NCBI GenBank assembly: GCA_016937715.1 | Contig: JAFGWA010000017.1 | Coordinates: forward strand, 3,227 to 67,226 | Direction: 5' to 3' | Source: Candidatus Goldiibacteriota bacterium | Lineage (GTDB): Bacteria; Oederibacteriota; PGYV01 | Length of the DNA stretch: 64,000 nucleotides | In this document: positions 33,634-45,198 of the stretch, piece by piece | Numbering within the stretch: the first letter of the stretch is position 1 | Layout: each line of letters opens with the position of its first letter | Position numbers and translations under genes: made by a program | Notes under the pieces: model-generated | Seen by the model: only the letters and a program-made list of their open reading frames with translations | Told to the model about the DNA's origin: nothing | The model's database searches: none

Positions 33634-34746
33634 TTAAACCGGCAGGCCTTCATCGTTATATTTTTTTGTGTCCGTAAGTTCGCCGTTTTCATAGCGCCCT
33701 TCAAGTTTCACTTTTCCGTTTTCAAAATAACTTGTATAATTGCCCGCGGGTATGCCTTCTTCAAAATACTGTTCCACCTGAACCTGACCGGAAGGGTAGT
33801 ACATTTTATAAAGCCCCTGCTGCTTGCCGTTATTATACGCGCCGGCCACTTTAAGTTTTCCTGATTTATAGTACAGTTTATAAAATCCGTGTTCCTGCCC
33901 GTTTAGGTATTCGCCTTCAACTTTAAGTTCTCCGGTTTCATAAAAAAGTTTATAGGGCCCTTCTTCAAGCCCTTCTTTATATATACCCTGCAGTTTAATA
34001 CCGCCGTTTTCATAATATAAAGTAAAGTTTCCGTTTTCTTTTCCGTTTACATATTCACCTGTCATTTTTGGCATGCCGTTTTCGTAATATTTCTGCACAG
34101 GCCCGTTTTTAACCCCGGCAGCATAAGCCTCTTTTACCATTATATTTCCATTTTCATAATAAAGTTTGTGAACCCCGTTTTCTTTGCCCTGAATATAAAT
34201 GCCTTCAAGCTTGACGGCGCCGGAAGGGTAGAACAGTTTAAACACACCTTCTTCTTTTCCGTATTTGTAAGACCCGTCTAACTTTTTATTTCCGTTCTCA
34301 TAAAAAGTTATAAAGCTTCCGTGTTTAATTCCGTCCCTGTAGGTTTCGTTAAGTTTAAGGATACCGCCTTCATAATAAGTGCGGTTAACGGCTTCGCCTG
34401 TAAGTTCGTTTATGGCGCGTTCATTTTTTAGGCTGCCGTCCGCGAACCAGCTTTGATAAGGCCAGGTAATTTCGCCGTCCTGATAGGTTTCCTGTTCGGC
34501 CGGTTTGCCGTTGTCATAATACCAGGTAACAGTTCCGTCTTTTATGGAATTATTTTCATAGGTTATTTTAGCCGCCGTCTTTATGCCGGACTGGTCTATT
34601 TTTACGCATGCGGTTTCACCCGATATTGTTTCGCCTTCTTTTAAAACACTGCCGTCCGGGTTAAAAGTCCAGACAGCCGCAAGGACGGTGGTATCCTTAA
34701 AAAATTTCTGCTGCTGTCCCTGACGGATGCTTTTAAAAGTTATCAT
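33634..34746 (-). CDS. MORN-repeat protein (YwqK/COG2849-like)
   Basis: At least 12 tandem repeats of about 23 aa with the pattern G.(Y/W).YYENG.(L/K)..G.Y.NG...G. Confidence 0.7.
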   Translation of the reverse strand: MITFKSIRQGQQQKFFKDTTVLAAVWTFNPDGSVLKEGETISGETACVKIDQSGIKTAAKITYENNSIKDGTVTWYYDNGKPAEQETYQDGEITWPYQSWFADGSLKNERAINELTGEAVNRTYYEGGILKLNETYRDGIKHGSFITFYENGNKKLDGSYKYGKEEGVFKLFYPSGAVKLEGIYIQGKENGVHKLYYENGNIMVKEAYAAGVKNGPVQKYYENGMPKMTGEYVNGKENGNFTLYYENGGIKLQGIYKEGLEEGPYKLFYETGELKVEGEYLNGQEHGFYKLYYKSGKLKVAGAYNNGKQQGLYKMYYPSGQVQVEQYFEEGIPAGNYTSYFENGKVKLEGRYENGELTDTKKYNDEGLPV

Positions 34747-35579: not shown

Positions 35580-35597
35580 TTGTTCCACGTGGAACAA
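35580..35597. promoter_or_regulatory. parS site 1 (perfect TTGTTCCACGTGGAACAA)
   Basis: An 18-bp perfect palindrome whose 16-bp core TGTTCCACGTGGAACA fits the ParB-binding consensus tGTTnCACGTGnAACa. It lies immediately after the rsmG stop. Confidence 0.8.
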
Positions 35598-35921
35598 TTT
35601 AGATTATTACAAATCATTTTGTTAAAACTTTAATTTTTTCATAAACTTTCCGGAATATTTTCTTCTGATATATTTATATAATTTATCCGTTTAAGTCTCG
35701 TTAAAATATACTATTCTAAATAAAAATTATTAAGCAGATTGTATTTTTTAATAGAATAGATATTTATAGTCAGCAATACAGATTTCTTAATAATTAATTG
35801 AATCTGAATAAATTTATTACCTTATAGTCTGACTTAATAATATTTAAATATAGATATTTTGTTTTATCACGCTGATATATGTATTAATAAAATTTAATTT
35901 TCAAAGTTTTCAATTCAATCA

Positions 35922-35939
35922 TTGTTCTACGTGGAACAA
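35922..35939. promoter_or_regulatory. parS site 2 (one mismatch: TTGTTCTACGTGGAACAA)
   Basis: Single C>T change in the left half-site; the exact mirror image of site 3. Confidence 0.65.
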
Positions 35940-36062
35940 TGAGAAGTTAAATAAGAGAATACTATCCTTAAGAAATATATATAAGCAATGCCTGCTTATG
36001 GTAATAGTACCGCATATATAGCCGCGTAACTTAATTAAACATAAGCTGCTTAAACACACCTA

Positions 36063-36080
36063 TTGTTCCACGTAGAACAA
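36063..36080. promoter_or_regulatory. parS site 3 (one mismatch: TTGTTCCACGTAGAACAA)
   Basis: Reverse complement of site 2. Confidence 0.65.
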
Positions 36081-36348
36081 TCTTTTAAGTATGGCAATAA
36101 TCATATTTATACTATAAAAATATAAGATAATGAATCAATACCGGAGGATAAAAACACATGCTTAAGCGCCTTTTTTGGTATCTATTAAAATGTAAAATTA
36201 ACTGATATGTATTAAATAATTACAGCGTTACAAATTTATGGTTGTGAATGTTAATTACAATAACAAGCATAAATAAATGTTTTGATGCATAACAATATTA
36301 TCAGAGAAAATATAAAGTCAAAGCAATCAAACATTATAAATACGCAAA

Positions 36349-36366
36349 TTGTTCCACGTGGAACAA
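36349..36366. promoter_or_regulatory. parS site 4 (perfect TTGTTCCACGTGGAACAA)
   Basis: Perfect 18-bp palindrome, 88 bp upstream of the recF start. Confidence 0.8.
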
Positions 36367-36453
36367 CTGAAAATTCTATAAAAATATATGTCTTGAAAAA
36401 GATATTCTATTGGTGTATCTTTGTCTCAATAGAAATATATTTCCGGAGGCAGG

Positions 36454-37551
36454 ATGTATATAAAAAAAATTGAACTTTCAAACCTTAGAAACTATTCATC
36501 ACTTAATTTAGAACTTGTTCAGGGTATAAATGTTTTTCACGGGGATAATGGTTCCGGGAAAACAAATATAATTGAAGCAATCCACTGGATGTCTTTGGGA
36601 AAATCTTTCAGAGCATCTGATGATAAAGAAATTGTTAAAGAGAATTGTGATTCGTGCAGAGTATACGCGGAAGCAGAAATAAGCGGGTTGGATAAATTGT
36701 TTTCTCTTGATTACTCATCTGCTTCCAGAAAGAAAAGCATCAGAATAAATAATACAAAGATAAAAAGGATGGGTGACATCATAGGAGAAATTCCTGTAGT
36801 GCTTTTTTCTCCGGAAGACATTCAGATAATAAAAGGCGAGCCGGTCTTAAGAAGAAAATATCTTGATCAGATGCTGTGCCAGGTAAGCAAAGAATATTTT
36901 GAGACGCTGGCAAAATATACAAAAGAGGTAAGTCACAGAAATTATCTGCTGAAGGGAATTAAAGACAAGAAAATAAAAATTTCCAATCTTGATATATGGA
37001 ACGAGCAGATTAAAAACAATGGAACATTATTAGTCATGAAAAGATTTGAAGCTATAGAAGAATTAAATTCAATTCTTGTTTCAAAATTTTCATCAGAAAA
37101 AAATGATGTCTCTATAACATATCTTTCCAAAAATTTTATGTCGGTAAAACCCGAAGACATAAAAGCCGAATATGAAAATCATTTTAAAACAAAAATTGAT
37201 GAAGAAATTTTAAGAGGCGTGACGCTGATTGGCCCTCATCGGGATGATTTAGAAATTTTTTATACCGGCAAAAAAGCAAAAGCTTTTGCGTCCGAAGGGC
37301 AGCAGAGAGTATCCGCTATTTTATTAAAACTTGCAGAGGGGCTTTTTATAAAAGAAAGAAAAAATATTTACCCTGTAATTATGCTTGATGATTTTTCTTC
37401 TGAACTTGATAACCCAAACCGCGGGTTTATAGGCAGGACACTTGAACAGTTTAAACAGATTATTATCACCACCACCTATCCGGAAAATTTAAAAGAGCTA
37501 ATTCCCGCAAAAATGTTCCACGTGGAACAAGGCAAAGTTAGACAAGGCTAA
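36454..37551 (+). CDS. recF: DNA replication and repair protein RecF
   Basis: Walker A GDNGSGKTN and ABC-type signature/D-loop regions over 365 aa; GGAGG RBS. Confidence 0.9.
   Translation: MYIKKIELSNLRNYSSLNLELVQGINVFHGDNGSGKTNIIEAIHWMSLGKSFRASDDKEIVKENCDSCRVYAEAEISGLDKLFSLDYSSASRKKSIRINNTKIKRMGDIIGEIPVVLFSPEDIQIIKGEPVLRRKYLDQMLCQVSKEYFETLAKYTKEVSHRNYLLKGIKDKKIKISNLDIWNEQIKNNGTLLVMKRFEAIEELNSILVSKFSSEKNDVSITYLSKNFMSVKPEDIKAEYENHFKTKIDEEILRGVTLIGPHRDDLEIFYTGKKAKAFASEGQQRVSAILLKLAEGLFIKERKNIYPVIMLDDFSSELDNPNRGFIGRTLEQFKQIIITTTYPENLKELIPAKMFHVEQGKVRQG
37513..37530. promoter_or_regulatory. parS site 5 (core TGTTCCACGTGGAACA perfect) embedded in the recF 3' coding sequence
   Basis: aTGTTCCACGTGGAACAa encodes ...MFHVEQG... 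near the recF C-terminus. parS sites inside genes are common for the origin-proximal parS set. Confidence 0.75.
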
Positions 37552-37680: not shown

Positions 37681-37709
37681 TTGACCTTAATATACCGTTG
37701 TGATAATAT
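37681..37709 (+). promoter_or_regulatory. sigma70-type promoter of the HD-GYP/cyclase operon
   Basis: TTGACC (37681-37686), 17-bp spacer, TAATAT (37704-37709). The ORF-track GTG start at 37700 lies inside the -10 element, so the TTG at 37739 is the more plausible start. Confidence 0.55.
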
Positions 37710-37738
37710 ATATTTACGGTGTTTTAGCGGAGGTATTT

Positions 37739-39019
37739 TTGAAAATAAGAAGCCAGTTAATATTAGGTATAGTTGCTATCGTCATCCTTTCTGTAACTGC
37801 AACCACTGTTGTGCTTGTAAGGGATGCCGCGGAAATAATGCAGGGGCAGATAAACGAAAAAGCGTTACTTATGATAAATTATTTTAAGGGCGTCAGCGCG
37901 GAACCGCTTTTAAAAGATGATGAAGTGACGCTTAATACATATCTTAATGAAATTATTTCAACCGAAGGGCTTGTTTACCTTATTATTACCGGCAGAGACG
38001 GGTATGTGAAAGCCGCTGACGATTCTTCACTGCTTGGCGCGGTTTTAAAAAACAGGCTGCCTGAGATTGCAGCGGGTGAAAAAAATATTTTTTTGAAATA
38101 TAAAGGCAGTGATTATTCAGTGATTGCCTTTTCGGGCACCGTGGACGTAAAAGCCGGACGAATTAAAACTGAAGCGGGAAAAATCTACGCCGGTTTTGAC
38201 AGTGAATACGTAAAGGAAAAACTTGTAAGGGTTTATGTTAAAAGCGCGGCAATTGCCGCGGGTATAATTATTATATCTGTTATTTTTATTGTGGCATTAA
38301 TGCACAGGATGATGAGCCCCTTAAACAAACTTGTAAAAGGGACAAATAAAATTGCAGACGGCGATTTAAGTTATAAAATAAAAATAACCGCGGGCAATGA
38401 ATTTCAGGAGCTTGCAAACAGTTTTAACGGCATGACGGATAAACTTAAGGATTATTATGACGGAATATTAAACGCGTTTACGGTGGCGGTGGATACGCAG
38501 GATAAATATATTCCCGCGCACGCAAAAAGAGTTTCAAAGATGGCGGTTAAAACAGCGCAGGCAGCCGGGCTTTCGCCCAAAAGGGCGGAAAATTTAAGGG
38601 TGGCTGCTATATTAAAGGATGTTGGCAATATCGGAGTAAAAAGAAAAATACTTGATAAGACCGACCCGCTTACGGCTGATGATTTTCTTGAAATACAGAA
38701 ACACCCGGAAATTGGAGCTAAGATTATTAAAAATATTGATGCTTTAAAAGATGTTGTCCCTATTATAGTGGCTCATCATGAAAGGTTTGACGGCAACGGT
38801 TATCCTGACGGCAAAAAAGGCGAGGAAATTCCTGTTGAGGCAAGGATTCTTGCGGTGGCGGACGCTTATGACGCCATGACAACCGAAAGGGAGCACAGAA
38901 AAGCGCTTGATAAAGAAGAGGCGGTTTATGAACTTAGGCTTAACAAAGGAAAACAGTTTGACCCTGTTATAACAGAAAGGTTTATTGAGGTAATAAATAA
39001 GGAAGGAGGAAAAACTTAA
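37739..39019 (+). CDS. membrane HAMP-HD-GYP phosphodiesterase (start revised to TTG at 37739)
   Basis: TM - periplasmic sensor region - TM - HAMP (LVKGTNKIADGDLSYKIKI) - HD domain with HHERFDGNGYPDG (HD-GYP). GGAGG lies 5 nt upstream of the TTG. The stop overlaps the next start (TAATG). Confidence 0.8.
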   Translation: MKIRSQLILGIVAIVILSVTATTVVLVRDAAEIMQGQINEKALLMINYFKGVSAEPLLKDDEVTLNTYLNEIISTEGLVYLIITGRDGYVKAADDSSLLGAVLKNRLPEIAAGEKNIFLKYKGSDYSVIAFSGTVDVKAGRIKTEAGKIYAGFDSEYVKEKLVRVYVKSAAIAAGIIIISVIFIVALMHRMMSPLNKLVKGTNKIADGDLSYKIKITAGNEFQELANSFNGMTDKLKDYYDGILNAFTVAVDTQDKYIPAHAKRVSKMAVKTAQAAGLSPKRAENLRVAAILKDVGNIGVKRKILDKTDPLTADDFLEIQKHPEIGAKIIKNIDALKDVVPIIVAHHERFDGNGYPDGKKGEEIPVEARILAVADAYDAMTTEREHRKALDKEEAVYELRLNKGKQFDPVITERFIEVINKEGGKT

Positions 39020-40581
39020 TGGCAGAAAAAAAGACGGTGAAGAAAAAAAATAAAGGATTAAAAATTTCACTGGGGGCTAAGTTTAGTTTTTTAGTGGGGC
39101 TGTTGTTTGCCGGAATAATGACGGTTGTCACCGTATTTATATATAATCACGAAAGCGATGTTCTTTCAAACCAAATAAAGCAGCGAGGTACTGCAATTGC
39201 GGTAAATCTTGCCAATAACGCATCCGAAGCGCTTACCAATGATGATGAACTTACGCTTTCCAAGCTTGCCAGGGAAGCTGTACAGGAAACAAAGTTTGAT
39301 GAAACACAAATGGAATTATATGACCGTGTAATTAAGATATTAAAGGAAGATATAATTGAACAGAAGAAGAAAGAAATTATTAAAAACGAAGGCATTATGG
39401 AAGCTGTTGTTGTAAAAAAAGACGGAAATATTGCGTCCGCGGATGAAGTAAGGAGGATAGATGAAAGATATATCCTTCCGGCGGGTTTAAAACCCGTTCA
39501 AAAAGAAAATGATGTGCTTATTCAGGAATATAAAAAAAATGGAAAAAGTTATTTTGATATCGCGGTACCTTTAAAAGCGAAGCTTGGTATGGATGAACAC
39601 ATGATAGGAGAGGTTCATCTTACGGTTTCAACGCAGATAATAACCGAGAGCGTGGCCGTGGCTTCTGTTAAAGTCGCCCTTATTACTATAATAGGGCTTA
39701 TAGCAGGGATACTTTTTACGGTACTGCTGGTAAACTTTATGGTAAAACCAATAAAGCAGCTTGTAAAAGGCGTTAATAAAATAGGGGAAGGAAATTATGA
39801 TGTGGTAATTCCCACCAGGTCGCATGATGAAATAGGCGATTTGACGAAAGCTTTTAATTCCACAGCCAAAAGCCTTAAGGAAAAAGAACTTTTAAAAGGC
39901 GCGTTTTCCACTTATGTGTCGGACAAAGTCATGCAGCAGGTTTTAAAAGACCCTAACAAACTGCAGCTTCACGGAATTAAGGTAAAAGCCACAATGATGT
40001 TTACCGATATCAGGGGATTTACATCAATGTCTGAAAATCTTCAGCCGGAAGAGGTTGTAAGCGTAATAAATGAGTATCTGACACTGCAGACTGATAAAGT
40101 TTTTAAATTTGAAGGGCTTCTTGATAAGTTTGTGGGAGACTGTGTAATGGCTGTATATGGCGTGCCTTTTCCCAAGCCGGATGACGCATACCGCGCCGTA
40201 AGGACAGCAATGGCTATAAGGGAAGGCGTGGAAAAACTTAATGTGATAAGAAAAAGAAGAAACATGATAGTGGTTCAGATAGGTATTGGGGTTAATACCG
40301 GCGATGTGGTTTCCGGAAACATGGGTTCGCCGCAGAAAATGGATTATACCGTAATAGGCGACAATGTAAACCTTGCCGCAAGGCTTGAAGCAAACGCTCC
40401 CGGCGGGCAGGTATGGGTAAGCGAAAGCACATATCTTGAGACAAAAGATTATATTGAATATGAAGAACTGGCGCCTATAATGGTTAAAGGAAAAAAGGAG
40501 CCGGTAAAAGTTTACAGCCCAAAAACTGTTATAATGGAATATCCAAAAGAACTGCTGGAAAAGGATAATAATGGAGCTTAA
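39019..40581 (+). CDS. membrane HAMP-class III adenylate/guanylate cyclase
   Basis: TM - sensor - TM - HAMP (LVKGVNKIGEGNYDVVIPT) - cyclase core MFTDIRGFTSMSE...FVGDCVMAVYG...GVNTGDVVSGNMGS...YTVIGDNVNLAARLE. Confidence 0.85.
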   Translation: MAEKKTVKKKNKGLKISLGAKFSFLVGLLFAGIMTVVTVFIYNHESDVLSNQIKQRGTAIAVNLANNASEALTNDDELTLSKLAREAVQETKFDETQMELYDRVIKILKEDIIEQKKKEIIKNEGIMEAVVVKKDGNIASADEVRRIDERYILPAGLKPVQKENDVLIQEYKKNGKSYFDIAVPLKAKLGMDEHMIGEVHLTVSTQIITESVAVASVKVALITIIGLIAGILFTVLLVNFMVKPIKQLVKGVNKIGEGNYDVVIPTRSHDEIGDLTKAFNSTAKSLKEKELLKGAFSTYVSDKVMQQVLKDPNKLQLHGIKVKATMMFTDIRGFTSMSENLQPEEVVSVINEYLTLQTDKVFKFEGLLDKFVGDCVMAVYGVPFPKPDDAYRAVRTAMAIREGVEKLNVIRKRRNMIVVQIGIGVNTGDVVSGNMGSPQKMDYTVIGDNVNLAARLEANAPGGQVWVSESTYLETKDYIEYEELAPIMVKGKKEPVKVYSPKTVIMEYPKELLEKDNNGA

Positions 40582-41821
40582 AAAAGACATATTAAAAACA
40601 GTTACCAGATACGCCCAGGCAGGCGAATGGGCTAAGGTTATAGCAGAGTATGAAAAACTGCTTCAAATTGAACCGGATGACATTAATGTCCATAATTCAA
40701 TAGGTGATGCTTTTTCCAAAATGGGCGAAGACAGAAAAGCGTTTGAACATTATCTGCGCGTGTTAAATGACCCGCAGACAAAGGCAAACCCCACAAAAAT
40801 GGCGTTTTTAAACAAGAAAATATCAAAACTTGACCCAAAAAAGTTTGACCTTGACGGCAAAGCGCTTCACGAAACCATTTCCAAATCGGTTAAAGCAAAG
40901 GATATGTTTGAAAAACAGGAAGGCGGGGATGCTTCTGCCCTGCCGGCGCTTAAAGAGGCGCTTGCAAACGATAAAATGAACCCTGAACTGTTCATGATGT
41001 TAGGCGAGGTTTATGAAAAGCAGACAGACATTGGAAACGCCATAGAATCTTATGTTAAGGCGTTAAGGATATATGTGGAAAAAAATAACAGCGGTAAAGG
41101 GCTGGAGCTTGCGAAAAAAATAATGAACCTGCAGAAAGAAAACACCGATGCTCTGGCAATGATTGCGGAAGATATGGTAAAAAACGGCAAAAAAGAAGAA
41201 GCTGAAGAGATGTTTAAGGATGTACTTATAAATTTAGCGGAAAAAAACCTTGTGGCAGAAGGTAAGGGTGTTTCAAAAAGGGCCATGGAGCTTGGGATAA
41301 CATACGGCGAGCAGTTTTTTTCCTATTTTCTTTTTAAAGACGGAAAATATGAAGAAGCCAGAAAAATTCTGGAAAAAAAATATTCACTTACGCTTGAAGA
41401 AAAACTTCTGCTTGGAAAAATATGCTACAAGATGAACGATTTTGAAAAAGCAAAATCTGTTTTTCTTTCGATGGACCCTGCAATAATAAATGAAAGCGAA
41501 GAACTGCTTGATCAGATAGGCGATGTTTTTCTTAAACTAAGGGAGTTAAAGACCTCTTCGGAATATTATATGAAAGTGGTGCGTATGCTTAAAAGCCAGG
41601 GAGACCTGGATCATGCCATGCTTGCCGCCAATAAAGTATTAAATGTGGACGGCGATAATATAGAAGTACACGAAATTCTGACAGATATATATACAAAAAA
41701 ACAGATGAAAAACAAGCTTATAGATTCCCTTACAAAACTGGCGTCGCTTTATGACGCCGCGCACAGGACGCAGGACAGCATGAGCGCCAAAAATATGCTT
41801 AATAAGCTGAAAATGCTTTAG
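40571..41821 (+). CDS. TPR-repeat protein
   Basis: Multiple 34-aa TPR-like helical repeats (AW...Y..AL, NPEL..MLGEVYEK...). It overlaps the cyclase gene by 11 nt. Confidence 0.6.
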   Translation: MELKKDILKTVTRYAQAGEWAKVIAEYEKLLQIEPDDINVHNSIGDAFSKMGEDRKAFEHYLRVLNDPQTKANPTKMAFLNKKISKLDPKKFDLDGKALHETISKSVKAKDMFEKQEGGDASALPALKEALANDKMNPELFMMLGEVYEKQTDIGNAIESYVKALRIYVEKNNSGKGLELAKKIMNLQKENTDALAMIAEDMVKNGKKEEAEEMFKDVLINLAEKNLVAEGKGVSKRAMELGITYGEQFFSYFLFKDGKYEEARKILEKKYSLTLEEKLLLGKICYKMNDFEKAKSVFLSMDPAIINESEELLDQIGDVFLKLRELKTSSEYYMKVVRMLKSQGDLDHAMLAANKVLNVDGDNIEVHEILTDIYTKKQMKNKLIDSLTKLASLYDAAHRTQDSMSAKNMLNKLKML

Positions 41822-41824
41822 CGC

Positions 41825-42175
41825 ATGAAGCCGTTTGACTGTGAAACCTGCGGTTTAAAGATTAAAGATAATCAGGCCGTTGTCAGGTGGCATTATGATA
41901 AAGAAAAAAAATCCGCGGATACTTTTCAGATAGTCCATCCAAATACGGTATGTTCAGATTCCAAAGAAGGTTTTTTTAACCGGTCGCTTGAACTGATGTA
42001 TGTTTTTGGAAAGATGCCGGAGTTTATAAAGTACATTTCAAGGTTAAAACACGATAAAAAAGAGCTTAAAAGGTTTGTGGACCGTATTGAAAAAGGGCGC
42101 AGTTACATAAGGCGGCACAACGCGGATAAAAACGAAATTAAAAAGCTGATAATAAGGCTTGAAGGGCTGGAATGA
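41825..42175 (+). CDS. hypothetical small protein with an N-terminal CxxC motif
   Basis: 116 aa, CETCG near the N-terminus, Lys/Arg-rich; tightly packed in the operon. Confidence 0.35.
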   Translation: MKPFDCETCGLKIKDNQAVVRWHYDKEKKSADTFQIVHPNTVCSDSKEGFFNRSLELMYVFGKMPEFIKYISRLKHDKKELKRFVDRIEKGRSYIRRHNADKNEIKKLIIRLEGLE

Positions 42176-42645
42176 TAATGGAATGCAAAGAGGCAAGAAA
42201 AAAACTTAATGATTATTCAAAAGGATATATTACAGATACCGCGGAAAAAGACAGCCTGGAGTCGCATATTAAAAAGTGCGAACTGTGCAGGCGGGAGCTT
42301 GCCATGTGGCAGGATGTAAACGACAGGCAGCACGGCCTGGAAGGCGGGCGCGTGTCATCGCGCCTTGCGGAAAAAGCCCATCAAATAAGCGGTGAAATGG
42401 AAAAAGACGTAAATATGGCTCCGGCCGCCAAAAGAATGGGTTATGTGGCCAATACTTTAAAATCTCCCGCGGCAATGATAATAGGAATAATTACGTGCGT
42501 GTTTTTAGGGCTGGCAATTCTGCTTATGTTTGTTAAAGAAGAAGTAAGCATATGGTTTCACATATTTATGATAGCGGGAGGAATTGCCATGATATTTGTG
42601 GCGGTTAAAACGTCCGTCTTCAACAGGAAGAAAAGTAAAAAGTAA
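42172..42645 (+). CDS. zf-HC2 (anti-sigma-factor-type zinc finger) membrane protein
   Basis: N-terminal C-x23-H-x3-C-x2-C (CKEARKKLNDY...HIKKCELC) typical of the anti-sigma zf-HC2 domain, then a C-terminal TM segment. No sigma factor gene is adjacent. Confidence 0.5.
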   Translation: MIMECKEARKKLNDYSKGYITDTAEKDSLESHIKKCELCRRELAMWQDVNDRQHGLEGGRVSSRLAEKAHQISGEMEKDVNMAPAAKRMGYVANTLKSPAAMIIGIITCVFLGLAILLMFVKEEVSIWFHIFMIAGGIAMIFVAVKTSVFNRKKSKK

Positions 42646-42647
42646 TA

Positions 42648-42676
42648 TTGACAAAATAACTGACAAAATATATAAT
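42648..42676 (+). promoter_or_regulatory. consensus sigma70 promoter (TTGACA-17-TATAAT) upstream of the cNMP-binding protein gene
   Basis: Perfect -35 TTGACA (42648-42653), exactly 17-bp spacer, perfect -10 TATAAT (42671-42676). Confidence 0.7.
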
Positions 42677-42711
42677 ACATAAGGATTAAAAAAAAGACGG
42701 GGGAAAATGAG

Positions 42712-43140
42712 ATGGCAGATGACATTACCAGGTTAAGAGAAACGCTTAAGAAGGTTGATTTTTTCTATTCTTTAAACTTTGCTCAGCTTGACGAACTTAT
42801 TAAAGCAATGAAAAAACAGAAATTCAGAAAAGGTGAAGTAATAATTCAGCAGGGTGAAACCGGAGATGCTTTCTACATGATATCGGTAGGTTCTGTATCC
42901 ATACATATAAAGAAAGGAATGTCAGAAAAGAAAGTGGCAGGGCTGTCAGAAGGTGATTTTTTTGGAGAAACAGCACTTGTAACAGATTCGCCAAGAAACG
43001 CCACTGTTATAGCAGAGGCACCTACAGAGCTGTTTGTATTGCATAAGGCCTCTTTTAAGAAAATACTTCTTGCCAACCCTAAGATATCTGCTATAATCAA
43101 AGAAGAACTGGCCAAAAGAAAGTCAAAAAACGCATTATAA
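42712..43140 (+). CDS. stand-alone cyclic-nucleotide-binding (CAP effector) domain protein
   Basis: 142 aa. The cNMP-binding beta-roll has FGETALV...PRNATVIA and a C-terminal helix, with no DNA-binding or other output domain. Confidence 0.8.
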   Translation: MADDITRLRETLKKVDFFYSLNFAQLDELIKAMKKQKFRKGEVIIQQGETGDAFYMISVGSVSIHIKKGMSEKKVAGLSEGDFFGETALVTDSPRNATVIAEAPTELFVLHKASFKKILLANPKISAIIKEELAKRKSKNAL

Positions 43141-43251: not shown

Positions 43252-45036
43252 ATGTCTGAAACAGCAATCAAAGAAGGTGAAGCAATTAATTACGTGCTTG
43301 AAGGTATTGACCAGTCGGTTAAAGACGGGGTTATGACAGCCCTTGAATTTTTTGGAAAAGAAAAATCTGACAACGGCAATAAAATAGAGGATGTTGTTAA
43401 GGTAAACAAATTAAGGACCGCTTACAATACATTAATAACAGCCCTTGTAACAACAAGGTTAAATGACCTTAATAAACAGCAGAGGCTTTTTCTTGCCACC
43501 GGCGCCATAGGCGATTTTGTGGAAATAGGCGATAACAGAATTAATCTGCTTGATCCGGAACTATACAAACAGCTGCTTGAAGCTTTTGAAACAAAAGATT
43601 CTTTAAGCGCGCTTTCGCTTTCAGTGTTCAGCGTACCGGATAAAATGAGGGCGCTTGCAGAGGGCAATATTGAACTTATAGACACTTCGGGCAAAAAGAA
43701 AAGAAAAAAGGAAGATACGCGCGACCCCAAGAAAGTAAAAGCGGAACTTGAATGGAAAAAGAATGACGCGTTAAAAGCCGGCGCTAACCTTGTAAGGACG
43801 CTTGGAACAAATATAGACAAGATGCTTCAGCTGGACGCGACAAAGTTAAAGACTTTAAAACTTAATTTTGACGCGCTGGATAAATACATGGCAATACTTG
43901 CAAAGGGAGAAAGGATAACACCCGAGGAAAAAAAGCTTAAGTCCGCCCTTGCAATGAGAAGCGACGGCATGGCAAAAGTGCTTGCTGATTTTACAAAGAT
44001 GTACGCAGAAACTTTTACAAGGTCGGCTGAAAATGTTGATGCCATAAAAGAAAAAGTTGACGTAATAAAAGAACTTGAAAATGACCTGTCAAAAGTATCA
44101 GATGTGGTTGCTGACCAGTCCGCAAGGGCATTTGATTCTTTCAGGCCCGAACACGTTGAAATTATTAAAAAAGATATAAGCATACTTAACAGTTTTATAG
44201 TAACGGCCGCGGAAAAAGCCGGCAACAGGATGCCGTATTCCGGCGCCAGGATACTTTTAAACAGCCAGATAATAGATATGCCGACAGCAATGACAAACTA
44301 TCTGTGCACGCCGCATAACGTCATAGAATCACTTAAAAAAATACTTTCAATTCACATAAACGCTTTTCCGATTGATGAAGACGGCAATTATAAAATCCCC
44401 CCCATTCTTATTGAACCTTTAAGAAATTATGTGGATTTTTTGGAAGACAGGTTTGTGATGGGTTTTGTAAGCGGCGAATCAGGCAAGAAAGGCGCGTATG
44501 TTTCATTTACCCCCATTGATTTTCAGGTTATGAAAGCTATTGGAATGTATCTTGCGAAAGATCCTGTATATGACTATCGCGGTGAAATAAACGAAGGTAC
44601 GTTTATGGGAGACTATACAGGAAAAATAGAAAAGACGGCTCAGGTGAAATGGACCGGCGCGGATAAGAAAATGAATATGGTTATGAGCGCGGAACTTGTG
44701 GACGCCGCATCCCGCGATGACGCGGTTCAGGATTATATAGATTTTATGTTCAACGCTTTAAACGGGCTTGGGCCTCCGCCTAAAATGTCAAAACGTAAAA
44801 TTAACGTACTTTTAAGATATGCCACGGTAAAGAGCATAGAAAATAATGTTAAACTGCTTTTAACTTATGTGGCTCAGTCCGAACCCACGGAAGTGCGTGA
44901 TACTATTCTTAAATACACAAACAGAAATTACGAACAGTCCAAAGAAATGGTAAGGGCATGCGTAAAAGAAGACGCAATGGTTCAGAGGATACTTGGCAAC
45001 AACCCGGAAATGGTAATAGCTAAGATATTTGTTTAA
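43252..45036 (+). CDS. hypothetical 594-aa soluble protein (no recognisable domain)
   Basis: Long ORF with a GGAGG RBS 9 nt upstream and coding-like composition, no TM segments, and no nucleotide-binding or catalytic motif identified by eye. Confidence 0.5.
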   Translation: MSETAIKEGEAINYVLEGIDQSVKDGVMTALEFFGKEKSDNGNKIEDVVKVNKLRTAYNTLITALVTTRLNDLNKQQRLFLATGAIGDFVEIGDNRINLLDPELYKQLLEAFETKDSLSALSLSVFSVPDKMRALAEGNIELIDTSGKKKRKKEDTRDPKKVKAELEWKKNDALKAGANLVRTLGTNIDKMLQLDATKLKTLKLNFDALDKYMAILAKGERITPEEKKLKSALAMRSDGMAKVLADFTKMYAETFTRSAENVDAIKEKVDVIKELENDLSKVSDVVADQSARAFDSFRPEHVEIIKKDISILNSFIVTAAEKAGNRMPYSGARILLNSQIIDMPTAMTNYLCTPHNVIESLKKILSIHINAFPIDEDGNYKIPPILIEPLRNYVDFLEDRFVMGFVSGESGKKGAYVSFTPIDFQVMKAIGMYLAKDPVYDYRGEINEGTFMGDYTGKIEKTAQVKWTGADKKMNMVMSAELVDAASRDDAVQDYIDFMFNALNGLGPPPKMSKRKINVLLRYATVKSIENNVKLLLTYVAQSEPTEVRDTILKYTNRNYEQSKEMVRACVKEDAMVQRILGNNPEMVIAKIFV

Positions 45037-45164: not shown

Positions 45165-45198
45165 GCCGCAGGTGAAAACCTGCGGCTTTTTTATTTTT
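45165..45198 (+). terminator. rho-independent terminator
   Basis: GCCGCAGGT-GAAA-ACCTGCGGC followed by TTTTTTATTTTT. A weaker hairpin (AACGCAATC-AAAG-GATTGCGTT) sits at 45037-45062, directly after the stop. Confidence 0.7.

Follow-up and report, generated by a model that had tools for sequence, protein, structure and literature searches.

The window analysed here is a stretch of 64,000 nt from contig JAFGWA010000017.1 (GCA_016937715.1) of a Candidatus Goldiibacteriota bacterium, and all coordinates given below are positions in this window. It carries on its forward strand two adjoining genes encoding membrane receptors of the same build. Gene A (open reading frame, ORF, 37700/37739..39019) encodes a protein that ends in a degenerate HD-GYP domain and gene B (39019..40581) encodes a class III nucleotide cyclase. 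The TAA stop codon of gene A (39017-39019) and the ATG of gene B (39019-39021) have one base in common, i.e., TAATG, as an earlier reading made from the sequence only (hereafter the sequence-only reading) had stated; the junction is read ACTTAATGGCA. The locus is best explained as a conserved two-gene signalling module that heads a five-gene operon adjoining recF in the Goldbacteria/FCPU426 lineage. The features of the two genes, all on the + strand, are the following:

37681..37709, +: sigma70-type promoter, with -35 TTGACC (37681-37686), a 17-nt spacer and an extended -10 TG-n-TAATAT (37701-37709)
37729..37741, +: Shine-Dalgarno GGAGG (37729-37733) and TTG start (37739-37741) of gene A, from the sequence and orthologue conservation
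37739..39019, +: gene A, 426 aa, with a first transmembrane helix (TM1), an sCache/PDC-like sensor, a second one (TM2), HAMP and a degenerate HD-GYP domain
37820..38233, +: extracytoplasmic sensor of gene A, about residues 28-165, single Cache/PDC fold (AlphaFold2 topology, Foldseek)
38297..38449, +: HAMP of gene A, residues 187-237 (PF00672, 52.2 bits for a cut-off of 25, E 7.8e-14)
38498..38968, +: HD-GYP domain, residues 254-410 (PF13487 HD_5, 125.8 bits for a cut-off of 27.2, E 1.9e-36)
38615..38629, +: degenerate catalytic motif K293-D294-V-G-N297 (AAG GAT GTT GGC AAT), replacing H-D-x-G-K
38774..38806, +: intact HHERFDGNGYP, residues 346-356, in which H346, H347, E348, R349, D351, G352, G354, Y355 and P356 are invariant
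39017..39021, +: TAATG stop/start overlap between gene A and the cyclase gene
39019..40581, +: gene B, adenylate cyclase gene, 520 aa, with TM1, an sCache-like sensor with an inserted helix, TM2, HAMP and a predicted class IIIb domain
39145..39663, +: extracytoplasmic sensor of the cyclase, about residues 43-215, homologous to that of gene A (BLASTP, phmmer, AlphaFold2)
39727..39879, +: HAMP of the cyclase, residues 237-287 (PF00672, 51.2 bits for a cut-off of 25)
39985..40503, +: class III cyclase catalytic domain, residues 323-495 (PF00211 Guanylate_cyc, 103.6 bits for a cut-off of 21.9)
40006-40008 and 40138-40140, +: codons of the metal-binding aspartates D330 and D374 (alignment to 3r5g, 1wc1 and 2w01)
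40126-40128 and 40348-40350, +: codons of the specificity residues, the adenine-specifying lysine K370 and threonine T444 (same alignments)
40369-40371 and 40381-40383, +: codons of the transition-state residues N451 and R455 (same alignments)

In a consensus scan, the promoter ahead of gene A matches the consensus at 9 of 12 positions, plus the TG; matches of this type show no enrichment in the AT-rich region (23 found, 19.7 expected). Because such a match is weak by itself, 12 orthologous upstream regions, whose encoded proteins are about 50% identical, were compared. In these otherwise unalignable regions, the only invariant blocks are TTGACC, TnTGnTAnnAT 17 nt further on and GGAGG before the start. 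This phylogenetic footprint indicates that the extended -10 promoter is genuine, in agreement with the single sigma70-like promoter initially proposed. Furthermore, the GTG at 37700 falls within the extended -10 element, the N-termini of the orthologues all begin M/L-K-I-K and the GGAGG-spacer-TTG arrangement is present in most Goldbacteria loci. The TTG at 37739 is thus the translation start of gene A, as had already been preferred to the GTG on account of its GGAGG.

The sequence-only reading attributed to both proteins a TM-sensor-TM-HAMP-catalytic domain architecture, which Pfam and AlphaFold2 models bear out (mean predicted local distance difference test, pLDDT, of 89.8 for the gene A protein with 44 homologues and 78.8 for the cyclase with 47 homologues). 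The two models have the same layout: a long TM/stalk helix at the N-terminus is followed by two short helices, an antiparallel sheet of five strands, TM2, HAMP and the output domain. Both HAMP domains directly follow TM2 in the Pfam matches. The topology of the models and Foldseek place a PDC/Cache fold between the two TM helices. The sensor of gene A matches the extracytoplasmic PAS/Cache domains of WalK/YycG (5is1/7dud, TMt 0.68), CitA, DcuS and DctB (Foldseek probability 1.0, TMt 0.63-0.68). Neither sensor reaches the gathering score of PF17203 sCache_3_2 (28.4), that of the cyclase scoring 19.5 bits (profile positions 4-135 of 140) and that of gene A giving no match; many orthologues carry precomputed matches to this family.

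The similarity of the two sensors, first noticed as a matching architecture, reflects true homology. The regions spanning sensor, TM2 and HAMP of the two proteins align with an E value of 9e-15 by BLASTP, with an insertion of about 35 residues in gene B. In local phmmer searches of 240 fetched proteins, the cyclase sensor alone finds the HD-GYP sensors of a sister clade (see below) at 3e-16 and 2e-12, and the sensor of gene A alone finds those of the cyclase family at 1e-8; ordinary HD-GYP proteins are unmatched in these searches. A protein search with the N-terminal 240 residues of gene A returns nothing at E <= 0.001. The two sensors are paralogous.

The catalytic half of gene B is that of an ordinary adenylate cyclase. 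D330, K370, D374, T444, N451 and R455 align with their counterparts in CyaB from P. aeruginosa (3r5g) and CyaC from Spirulina (1wc1), and these six catalytic or specificity residues are invariant across 47 homologues, down to 40% identity. The motifs FTDIRGFT, DKFVGD and DYTVIGDNVNLAARLE are near-identical to those of CyaB, and the model of the domain superimposes on 3r5g with a root-mean-square deviation (rmsd) of 2.0 Å and a TMt of 0.89 (Foldseek). In contrast, Glu and Gly occupy the positions of K370 and T444 in the guanylate cyclase Cya2 (2w01). In the residue-level alignment to solved structures, T444 aligns with the threonine standing for the class IIIa aspartate, and class IIIb is defined in part by this replacement of the substrate-binding Asp by Thr (PMC2613629). 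Gene B is therefore predicted to encode a catalytically complete class IIIb adenylate cyclase, and cyclic AMP (cAMP) is the product expected from its full and invariant set of catalytic and specificity residues; no sign of another product was found in the active-site residues.

Comparison with characterised class IIIb enzymes gives the same picture for the catalytic domain, which is 35-38% identical to those of CyaB (3r5g), Spirulina CyaC (1wc0) and Anabaena CyaB1 and carries the same D, D, K, T, N and R within a homodimeric head-to-tail class III fold. The differences lie elsewhere: the N-terminal module of the window cyclase is an sCache-like sensor with two TM helices and a HAMP domain, its family has a helical insertion of about 35-50 residues in the sensor, and a pseudo-HD-GYP partner gene is undescribed for the characterised enzymes. 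The bacterial class IIIb members that were examined respond to inorganic carbon (PMC2613629).

The HD-GYP domain of gene A keeps the fold of the family (Foldseek to PA4781, 4r8z, rmsd 1.9 Å; to PmGH, 4mcw, E 1e-15). It is related to PmGH, PA4781 and V-cGAP3 (5z7c) through the HD_5 profile, a 29% identity to PA4781 and the HHExxDGxGYP motif, and equivalents of H189, D222, H250, D305 and D308 are present. However, the dyad region reads AAILKDVGNIGV where the canonical sequence is aalLHDiGKiGv (alignment to 5z7c and 4mcw), so that K-D stands for HD, KDxGN for HDxGK and, further on, KTD for KPG, and these changes are fixed across the orthologues. K293 occupies the position of a metal-ligand histidine (H221 of PmGH) and N297 that of K225 of PmGH. 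In PmGH, the substitutions H221A, K225A and D183A each abolish activity (PMC4159591), and the equivalent of D183 is Asn or His in many members of the gene A family.

These substitutions are no sequencing accident, since L[K/M]D[IV]GN is found in 39 of 39 full-length orthologues, which show 44-97% identity and for the most part carry the labels Candidatus Goldbacteria/Goldiibacteriota or FCPU426; among the more distant HD-GYP matches listed, all have LHD.GK or a close variant. The alternation of Lys with Met among orthologues argues that the dyad residue is not a metal ligand. D294, G296 and the substituted N297 are invariant, as are the five remaining ligands H261, H322, H346, H347 and D375 (equivalents of H189, H250, H276, H277 and D305 of PmGH), D378 and the nucleotide-binding motif RxY[K/R], here in the form R-x-H-R. 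A Tyr at the position of E185 places the family in the "binuclear" Y/F subgroup. Moreover, the ratio of nonsynonymous to synonymous substitution rates (dN/dS) of the domain is 0.05, which argues that it is functional and not decaying, and it is the most constrained part of the protein. The domain is either a pseudo-enzyme that selection maintains or an enzyme with strong alterations, and its gene is not in decay.

Because the dyad histidine and the neighbouring lysine are lost and the D183 position varies in the clade, the domain is most likely unable to hydrolyse cyclic di-GMP (c-di-GMP) or cyclic GMP-AMP (cGAMP) by the canonical binuclear mechanism. The database labels "c-di-GMP phosphodiesterase class II" and "HD domain-containing phosphohydrolase" that the family carries are probably wrong as to function. 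An alternative is that gene A still encodes an active c-di-GMP/cGAMP phosphodiesterase with a modified metal centre, mononuclear or Lys/Met-assisted, so that the operon would lower c-di-GMP and raise cAMP on the same external cue. The Goldbacteria clade retains, with high conservation, six of the seven common ligands, the GYP motif and R-x-H-R, and the low dN/dS would suit an enzyme as well; in addition, RpfG of Lysobacter, which is devoid of a different His ligand, is reported to be robustly active (Galperin & Chou), and other HD-GYP lineages repeatedly show a replaced dyad His next to an unchanged HHE..GYP. Against it stand the inactivity of both the H221A and the K225A mutant of PmGH, two positions that are changed together here, the K/M alternation at a ligand position, the Asn or His at the D183 position of many members, and a sister clade with the same pairing in which the dyad is Q-N and the bridging Asp is lost as well. 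This Q-N clade makes an active enzyme less likely for the family as a whole, and we consider this alternative rather unlikely.

Dyad variants were also seen outside the family. About 30 of some 170 motif matches (P0244-P0377, new representatives) have a non-His dyad (C-D, R-D, F-D, Q-D, H-N and others) with HHE..GYP intact. Many of them are very long multi-domain proteins or tandem HD-[HD-GYP] proteins; the motif finder was crude and some rows are misplaced. It seems that the dyad histidine alone has been lost repeatedly in the evolution of the HD-GYP superfamily.

The active sites of both proteins bear on another explanation, that of a matched synthase/hydrolase pair in which the cyclase would make an unusual messenger, or cAMP, and the HD-GYP would be its dedicated hydrolase. 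Adjacency and translational coupling would fit such a pair, as would the local cyclic mononucleotide signalling suggested by a cyclic nucleotide monophosphate (cNMP)-binding protein encoded nearby (see below). However, the cyclase carries the canonical Lys/Thr adenine pair in an ordinary active site, the HD-GYP domain is devoid of residues essential for hydrolysis, and no HD-GYP hydrolysing cAMP was found in the literature searched; this makes a matched pair highly improbable. A role of gene A as cAMP phosphodiesterase was likewise rejected as leading model, the ligand losses arguing against any HD-type hydrolysis and no precedent having been found. Thus, the sequence-only reading remains valid for the architecture, the sensors, the coupling, the promoter, the start codon and the non-obvious character of the cyclase/HD-GYP pairing, whereas the possible synthase/hydrolase pair and unusual second messenger that it raised are contradicted by both residue analyses, which gave the two outcomes that this reading had itself listed as refuting: structure alignment finds the specificity residues of a plain adenylate cyclase (K370/T444) and an HD-GYP that has lost the dyad His, a catalytic metal ligand, together with the Lys of HDxGK. 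Cross-talk, if present, may pass through the pseudo-enzyme rather than through an enzymatic pairing.

The tight packing of the locus continues past the cyclase gene with three further genes:

40571..42645, +: tetratricopeptide repeat (TPR) protein (40571-41821), 116-aa protein (41825-42175) and zf-HC2-like membrane protein (42172-42645)

The TPR gene start overlaps the cyclase stop by 11 nt, the 116-aa gene starts 3 nt past the TPR stop and the zf-HC2-like gene overlaps the 116-aa gene through ATGA. No terminator-like site was found on the + strand between the genes of the operon, and the three genes are probably co-transcribed with genes A and B. The 116-aa protein (p116) contains Cys and has no Pfam, NCBIfam or significant PDB sequence match; the zf-HC2-like membrane protein has an anti-sigma-like N-terminus, and no sigma factor gene adjoins these three genes.

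Conservation of the locus was studied in a Goldbacteria clade of 19 loci, i.e., the window, 17 loci from species-representative genomes and a 90% relative on a 612-kb contig. The gene order is rsmG-recF-gene A-[cyclase]-TPR-p116-zfHC2. The cyclase gene lies between gene A and the TPR gene in 14 of the 19 loci, window included, one of these loci being cut inside the cyclase, and the junctions between genes A and B range from a 20-nt overlap to a 4-nt gap. The TPR, p116 and zfHC2 genes lie downstream in 16 of the 16 loci reaching that far (of 17), including five without a cyclase. Whether the dyad residue is K or M shows no correlation with the presence of the cyclase, which is missing from four K loci (L009-L012) and one M locus (L016).

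The pair is also found in a sister clade. Proteins P0040 and P0043 are 30-32% identical to the gene A product and have an identical architecture with Q-N in place of H-D, and a cyclase orthologue (39-41% identity) is encoded next to each. In the same way, a search from the cyclase side gave four homologues (42-50% identity) from Firestonebacteria, FCPU426 and unclassified metagenome-assembled genomes, each preceded by a 423-430-aa sCache-HAMP-HD_5 protein with Q-N. The cyclase gene is directly downstream in six of six loci of this clade, with junctions ranging from an 8-nt overlap to a 14-nt gap, in a context where a Tricorn-like gene lies upstream, rpiB-SHMT downstream, and TPR, p116 and zfHC2 are missing. 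The view that these last three genes are indispensable to the module is therefore rejected. When 1.8 billion representatives were searched with a profile, a third clade with an I-D dyad emerged (P0253), where a cyclase-like sensor-HAMP gene starts 16 nt downstream; the contig ends before any cyclase domain. In all six Q-N loci (L087-L090, L081 and L086), a promoter-like element TTGACA-18-TG-TAAACT lies 59-127 nt upstream of the ATG, which implies a long conserved 5' leader. An Rfam scan of the window and of the sister loci, made in search of a riboswitch within these leaders, gave no match at the gathering score.

A metagenome scan with the sister-clade alignment, whose patterns (HHHER, ADAYDAM) are generic, returned mostly ordinary HD-GYPs and no new sister-clade locus; these matches were used as a background control for cyclase adjacency. 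The fetched loci contain 152 canonical-HD HD-GYP domains, and in no case does a cyclase domain follow within 1.5 kb. Neither P0243, the nearest canonical-HD protein of identical architecture, nor P0072, a canonical HAMP-HD-GYP, has a cyclase neighbour, and no HD-GYP gene adjoins the 455-aa cyclases, which are more distant and belong to WOR-3-like bacteria. Since the pairs recur while the canonical controls are without cyclase, the association is specific to this cyclase family and to the dyad-degenerate HD-GYP paralogues. Thus, the pairing of the adenylate cyclase with a degenerate HD-GYP is conserved and specific, and the two genes are co-inherited in at least two deep clades.

This distribution also bears on whether the two proteins work together at all. 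They could be independent sensors placed merely on one promoter, with the HD-GYP acting in another pathway, for example with the TPR, 116-aa and zf-HC2 proteins. The five Goldbacteria loci with gene A, TPR, p116 and zfHC2 and without cyclase agree with such an independence, and because the recF/rsmG synteny is conserved too, the linkage could be inherited gene order. However, the pair recurs in the Q-N clade amid wholly different neighbours and without TPR, p116 and zfHC2, the junctions stay tight, with at most 20 nt of overlap or 14 nt of gap, such a neighbour is missing from all 152 canonical HD-GYPs and the sensors of the two proteins are paralogous. We regard independent sensors as unlikely.

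The explanation that we favour, and hold to be somewhat more probable than all others together, is a sensor that makes cAMP, expressed together with a paralogous HD-GYP that does not hydrolyse and would serve as its regulatory partner, possibly as a nucleotide receptor similar to DvhD. One promoter would drive two paralogous membrane receptors with a common Cache-type sensor, two TM helices and HAMP; gene B would make cAMP, and the product of gene A would be a pseudo-enzyme that keeps the HD-GYP fold and HHExxDGxGYP and acts as a non-catalytic partner of the cyclase. Such a role is suggested by the strong purifying selection together with cyclase adjacency in three clades with different dyads (K/M-D, Q-N and I-D). 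Two routes can be proposed. The degenerate HD-GYP could bind a nucleotide without cleaving it and relay its state through HAMP and the membrane, as DvhD does, or it could contact the cyclase directly through the homologous sensor, TM and HAMP modules. Class III cyclases need two catalytic domains, so a simple 1:1 heterodimer of the degenerate HD-GYP with the cyclase would be inactive; a contact, if any, is more likely to be inhibitory or to involve higher-order assemblies.

A nucleotide-binding and non-cleaving role is plausible from the residues. Six of the eight canonical-site contacts of DvhD are kept or similar (L311, Y355, M380, R384, H386 and R387), and HD-GYP domains can bind substrate with an incomplete metal centre. 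A more specific version is that the degenerate HD-GYP is a non-hydrolysing receptor of a cyclic dinucleotide, most plausibly c-di-GMP, that assembles with the paralogous cyclase and gates cAMP synthesis; this we advance tentatively, as possible but well short of probable.

Several observations weigh against a regulatory partner of this kind. The cyclase gene is cleanly absent from five of the 19 Goldbacteria loci that keep gene A, so that gene A has, or may take, a role without the cyclase, unless the latter has moved elsewhere in those genomes. Only one of the seven metal ligands common to HD-GYPs is changed in the window protein, and some HD-GYPs without a His ligand, such as the Lysobacter RpfG mentioned above, reportedly still hydrolyse c-di-GMP (Galperin & Chou). 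The DvhD contacts K582 and E668 are unconserved, and the sister clade has Q at the position of R384. Lastly, a crude scan of ORFs of at least 150 aa, covering only the limited sequence of the window and of the first 17 flanking loci, found no GGDEF or EAL motif.

Among known systems, DvhD (DVU1020) from Desulfovibrio vulgaris (PDB 9rbz/9rc0) is one of the closest structural matches of the gene A product (9rbz, Foldseek E 2e-12, TMt about 0.82). Its organisation is TM-dCache-TM-PAS-degenerate HD-GYP and it binds c-di-GMP without metals or turnover for inside-out signalling (PMC13090378). In both proteins, two TM helices flank a Cache-type domain outside the cytoplasm, and a transmitter domain on the cytoplasmic side is followed by a C-terminal, ligand-depleted HD-GYP, with the GYP Tyr, M, R-x-[Y/H]-R and L of the canonical site kept or similar. 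They differ in that dCache and PAS stand in DvhD where the gene A product has sCache and HAMP; DvhD is also degraded at both HD (S-Q) and HH (M-N), whereas the gene A product keeps HHE, and it partners a periplasmic protease in the Lap-like Dvh system where the partner gene of gene A encodes a cyclase. Of the marks of a degenerate HD-GYP receptor or regulator, the gene A product shows the fold, substituted catalytic ligands and maintenance by selection (dN/dS 0.05).

Other degenerate HD-GYP regulators, such as HnoD (SO_2541) and ECA3548, also have substituted active-site motifs and act through protein-protein interaction or nucleotide binding; for example, HnoD inhibits a partner phosphodiesterase (Galperin & Chou 2021 preprint). 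These are soluble, REC- or PilZ-linked proteins in which both HD and HHE are degraded, whereas the gene A product has a transmembrane sensor, a degradation restricted to the HD/GK part and a conserved cyclase partner. LapD, an inside-out c-di-GMP receptor with degenerate GGDEF-EAL, has the same succession of TM, periplasmic domain, TM, HAMP and dead c-di-GMP-metabolising domain and offers a mechanistic template for a pseudo-enzyme that relays the nucleotide state of the cytoplasm to the other side of the membrane. The likeness is one of mechanism only, the output domains being unrelated, the periplasmic fold different and the partner of LapD being the protease LapG.

Each part of the module, i.e., class IIIb adenylate cyclase, HAMP, Cache/PDC sensor and degenerate HD-GYP, is already known in kind. 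All that the HD-GYP census of Galperin & Chou has on the subject is that HD-GYP proteins and cyclases have some sensor modules (MASE10) in common, and full-text literature searches gave no description of a conserved pairing of a degenerate HD-GYP with an adenylate cyclase, nor of the gene A family.

The operon is followed by another unit on the same strand:

42648..43140, +: candidate cAMP receptor unit, with a TTGACA-17-TATAAT promoter (42648-42676) and a gene for a 142-aa stand-alone cNMP-binding protein (42712-43140)

This promoter matches the consensus at 12 of 12 positions in the consensus scan. The 142-aa protein matches PF00027 (E 3e-22) with the phosphate-binding cassette FGETALVTDSPRNAT and could be a receptor or effector of the cAMP made by the neighbouring cyclase. 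Its gene is followed by that of a 594-aa protein (43252-45036), which has no Pfam, NCBIfam or significant PDB sequence match, then by a strong terminator (45165-45186); the two genes are conserved and syntenic in loci L085 and L013 (67-68% identity). A second class III cyclase ORF of 358 codons (958-2031, - strand) carries FSDIRGFT, KFIGDA and EYTVIGDTVNFASR (Lys/Thr) and is of adenylate cyclase type, which suggests that the genome encodes several adenylate cyclases.

Upstream of recF, an AT-rich and ORF-poor gap of 874 nt (35580-36453) separates it from rsmG (gidB). Four copies of the 16-bp palindrome TGTTCCACGTGGAACA lie there, at 35581, 35923, 36064 and 36350 (0-1 mismatch), and a fifth inside the 3' end of recF (37514-37529); none was found elsewhere in the 64 kb, 0 being expected by chance. 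The half-site TGTTCCACG resembles the DnaA box TTATCCACA at six of nine positions. The nearest genes lie on the - strand to the left of the gap and on the + strand to its right, AT skew changes sign at the gap, and GC skew passes from negative to positive across the window. The gap is thus a candidate chromosomal replication origin, in which case the operon would adjoin oriC. A 370-aa protein of MORN-like repeats (YxNGxxxxEGxY) is encoded at 33634-34746 on the - strand; its counterpart in L013 has 56% identity and the same position upstream of rsmG.

Degenerate GGDEF, EAL and HD-GYP domains are known as receptors or regulators whose partners have so far been found within c-di-GMP or adhesin pathways. 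If the coupling proposed here is true, it would be a hard-wired link between the cyclic dinucleotide and cAMP worlds and a new mode of regulation of class III cyclases. The module would be a direct converter of c-di-GMP into cAMP signal, or a two-input AND/NOT gate of an external ligand and an internal nucleotide. It is a testable two-gene system with expressible soluble cytoplasmic halves, and the natural dyad series K-D, M-D, Q-N and I-D can be used to probe what an HD-GYP does after hydrolysis ends. Class III adenylate cyclases would then have, in the degenerate HD-GYP, a type of regulatory subunit that has not been described before and is conserved in Goldbacteria, Firestonebacteria and related candidate lineages.

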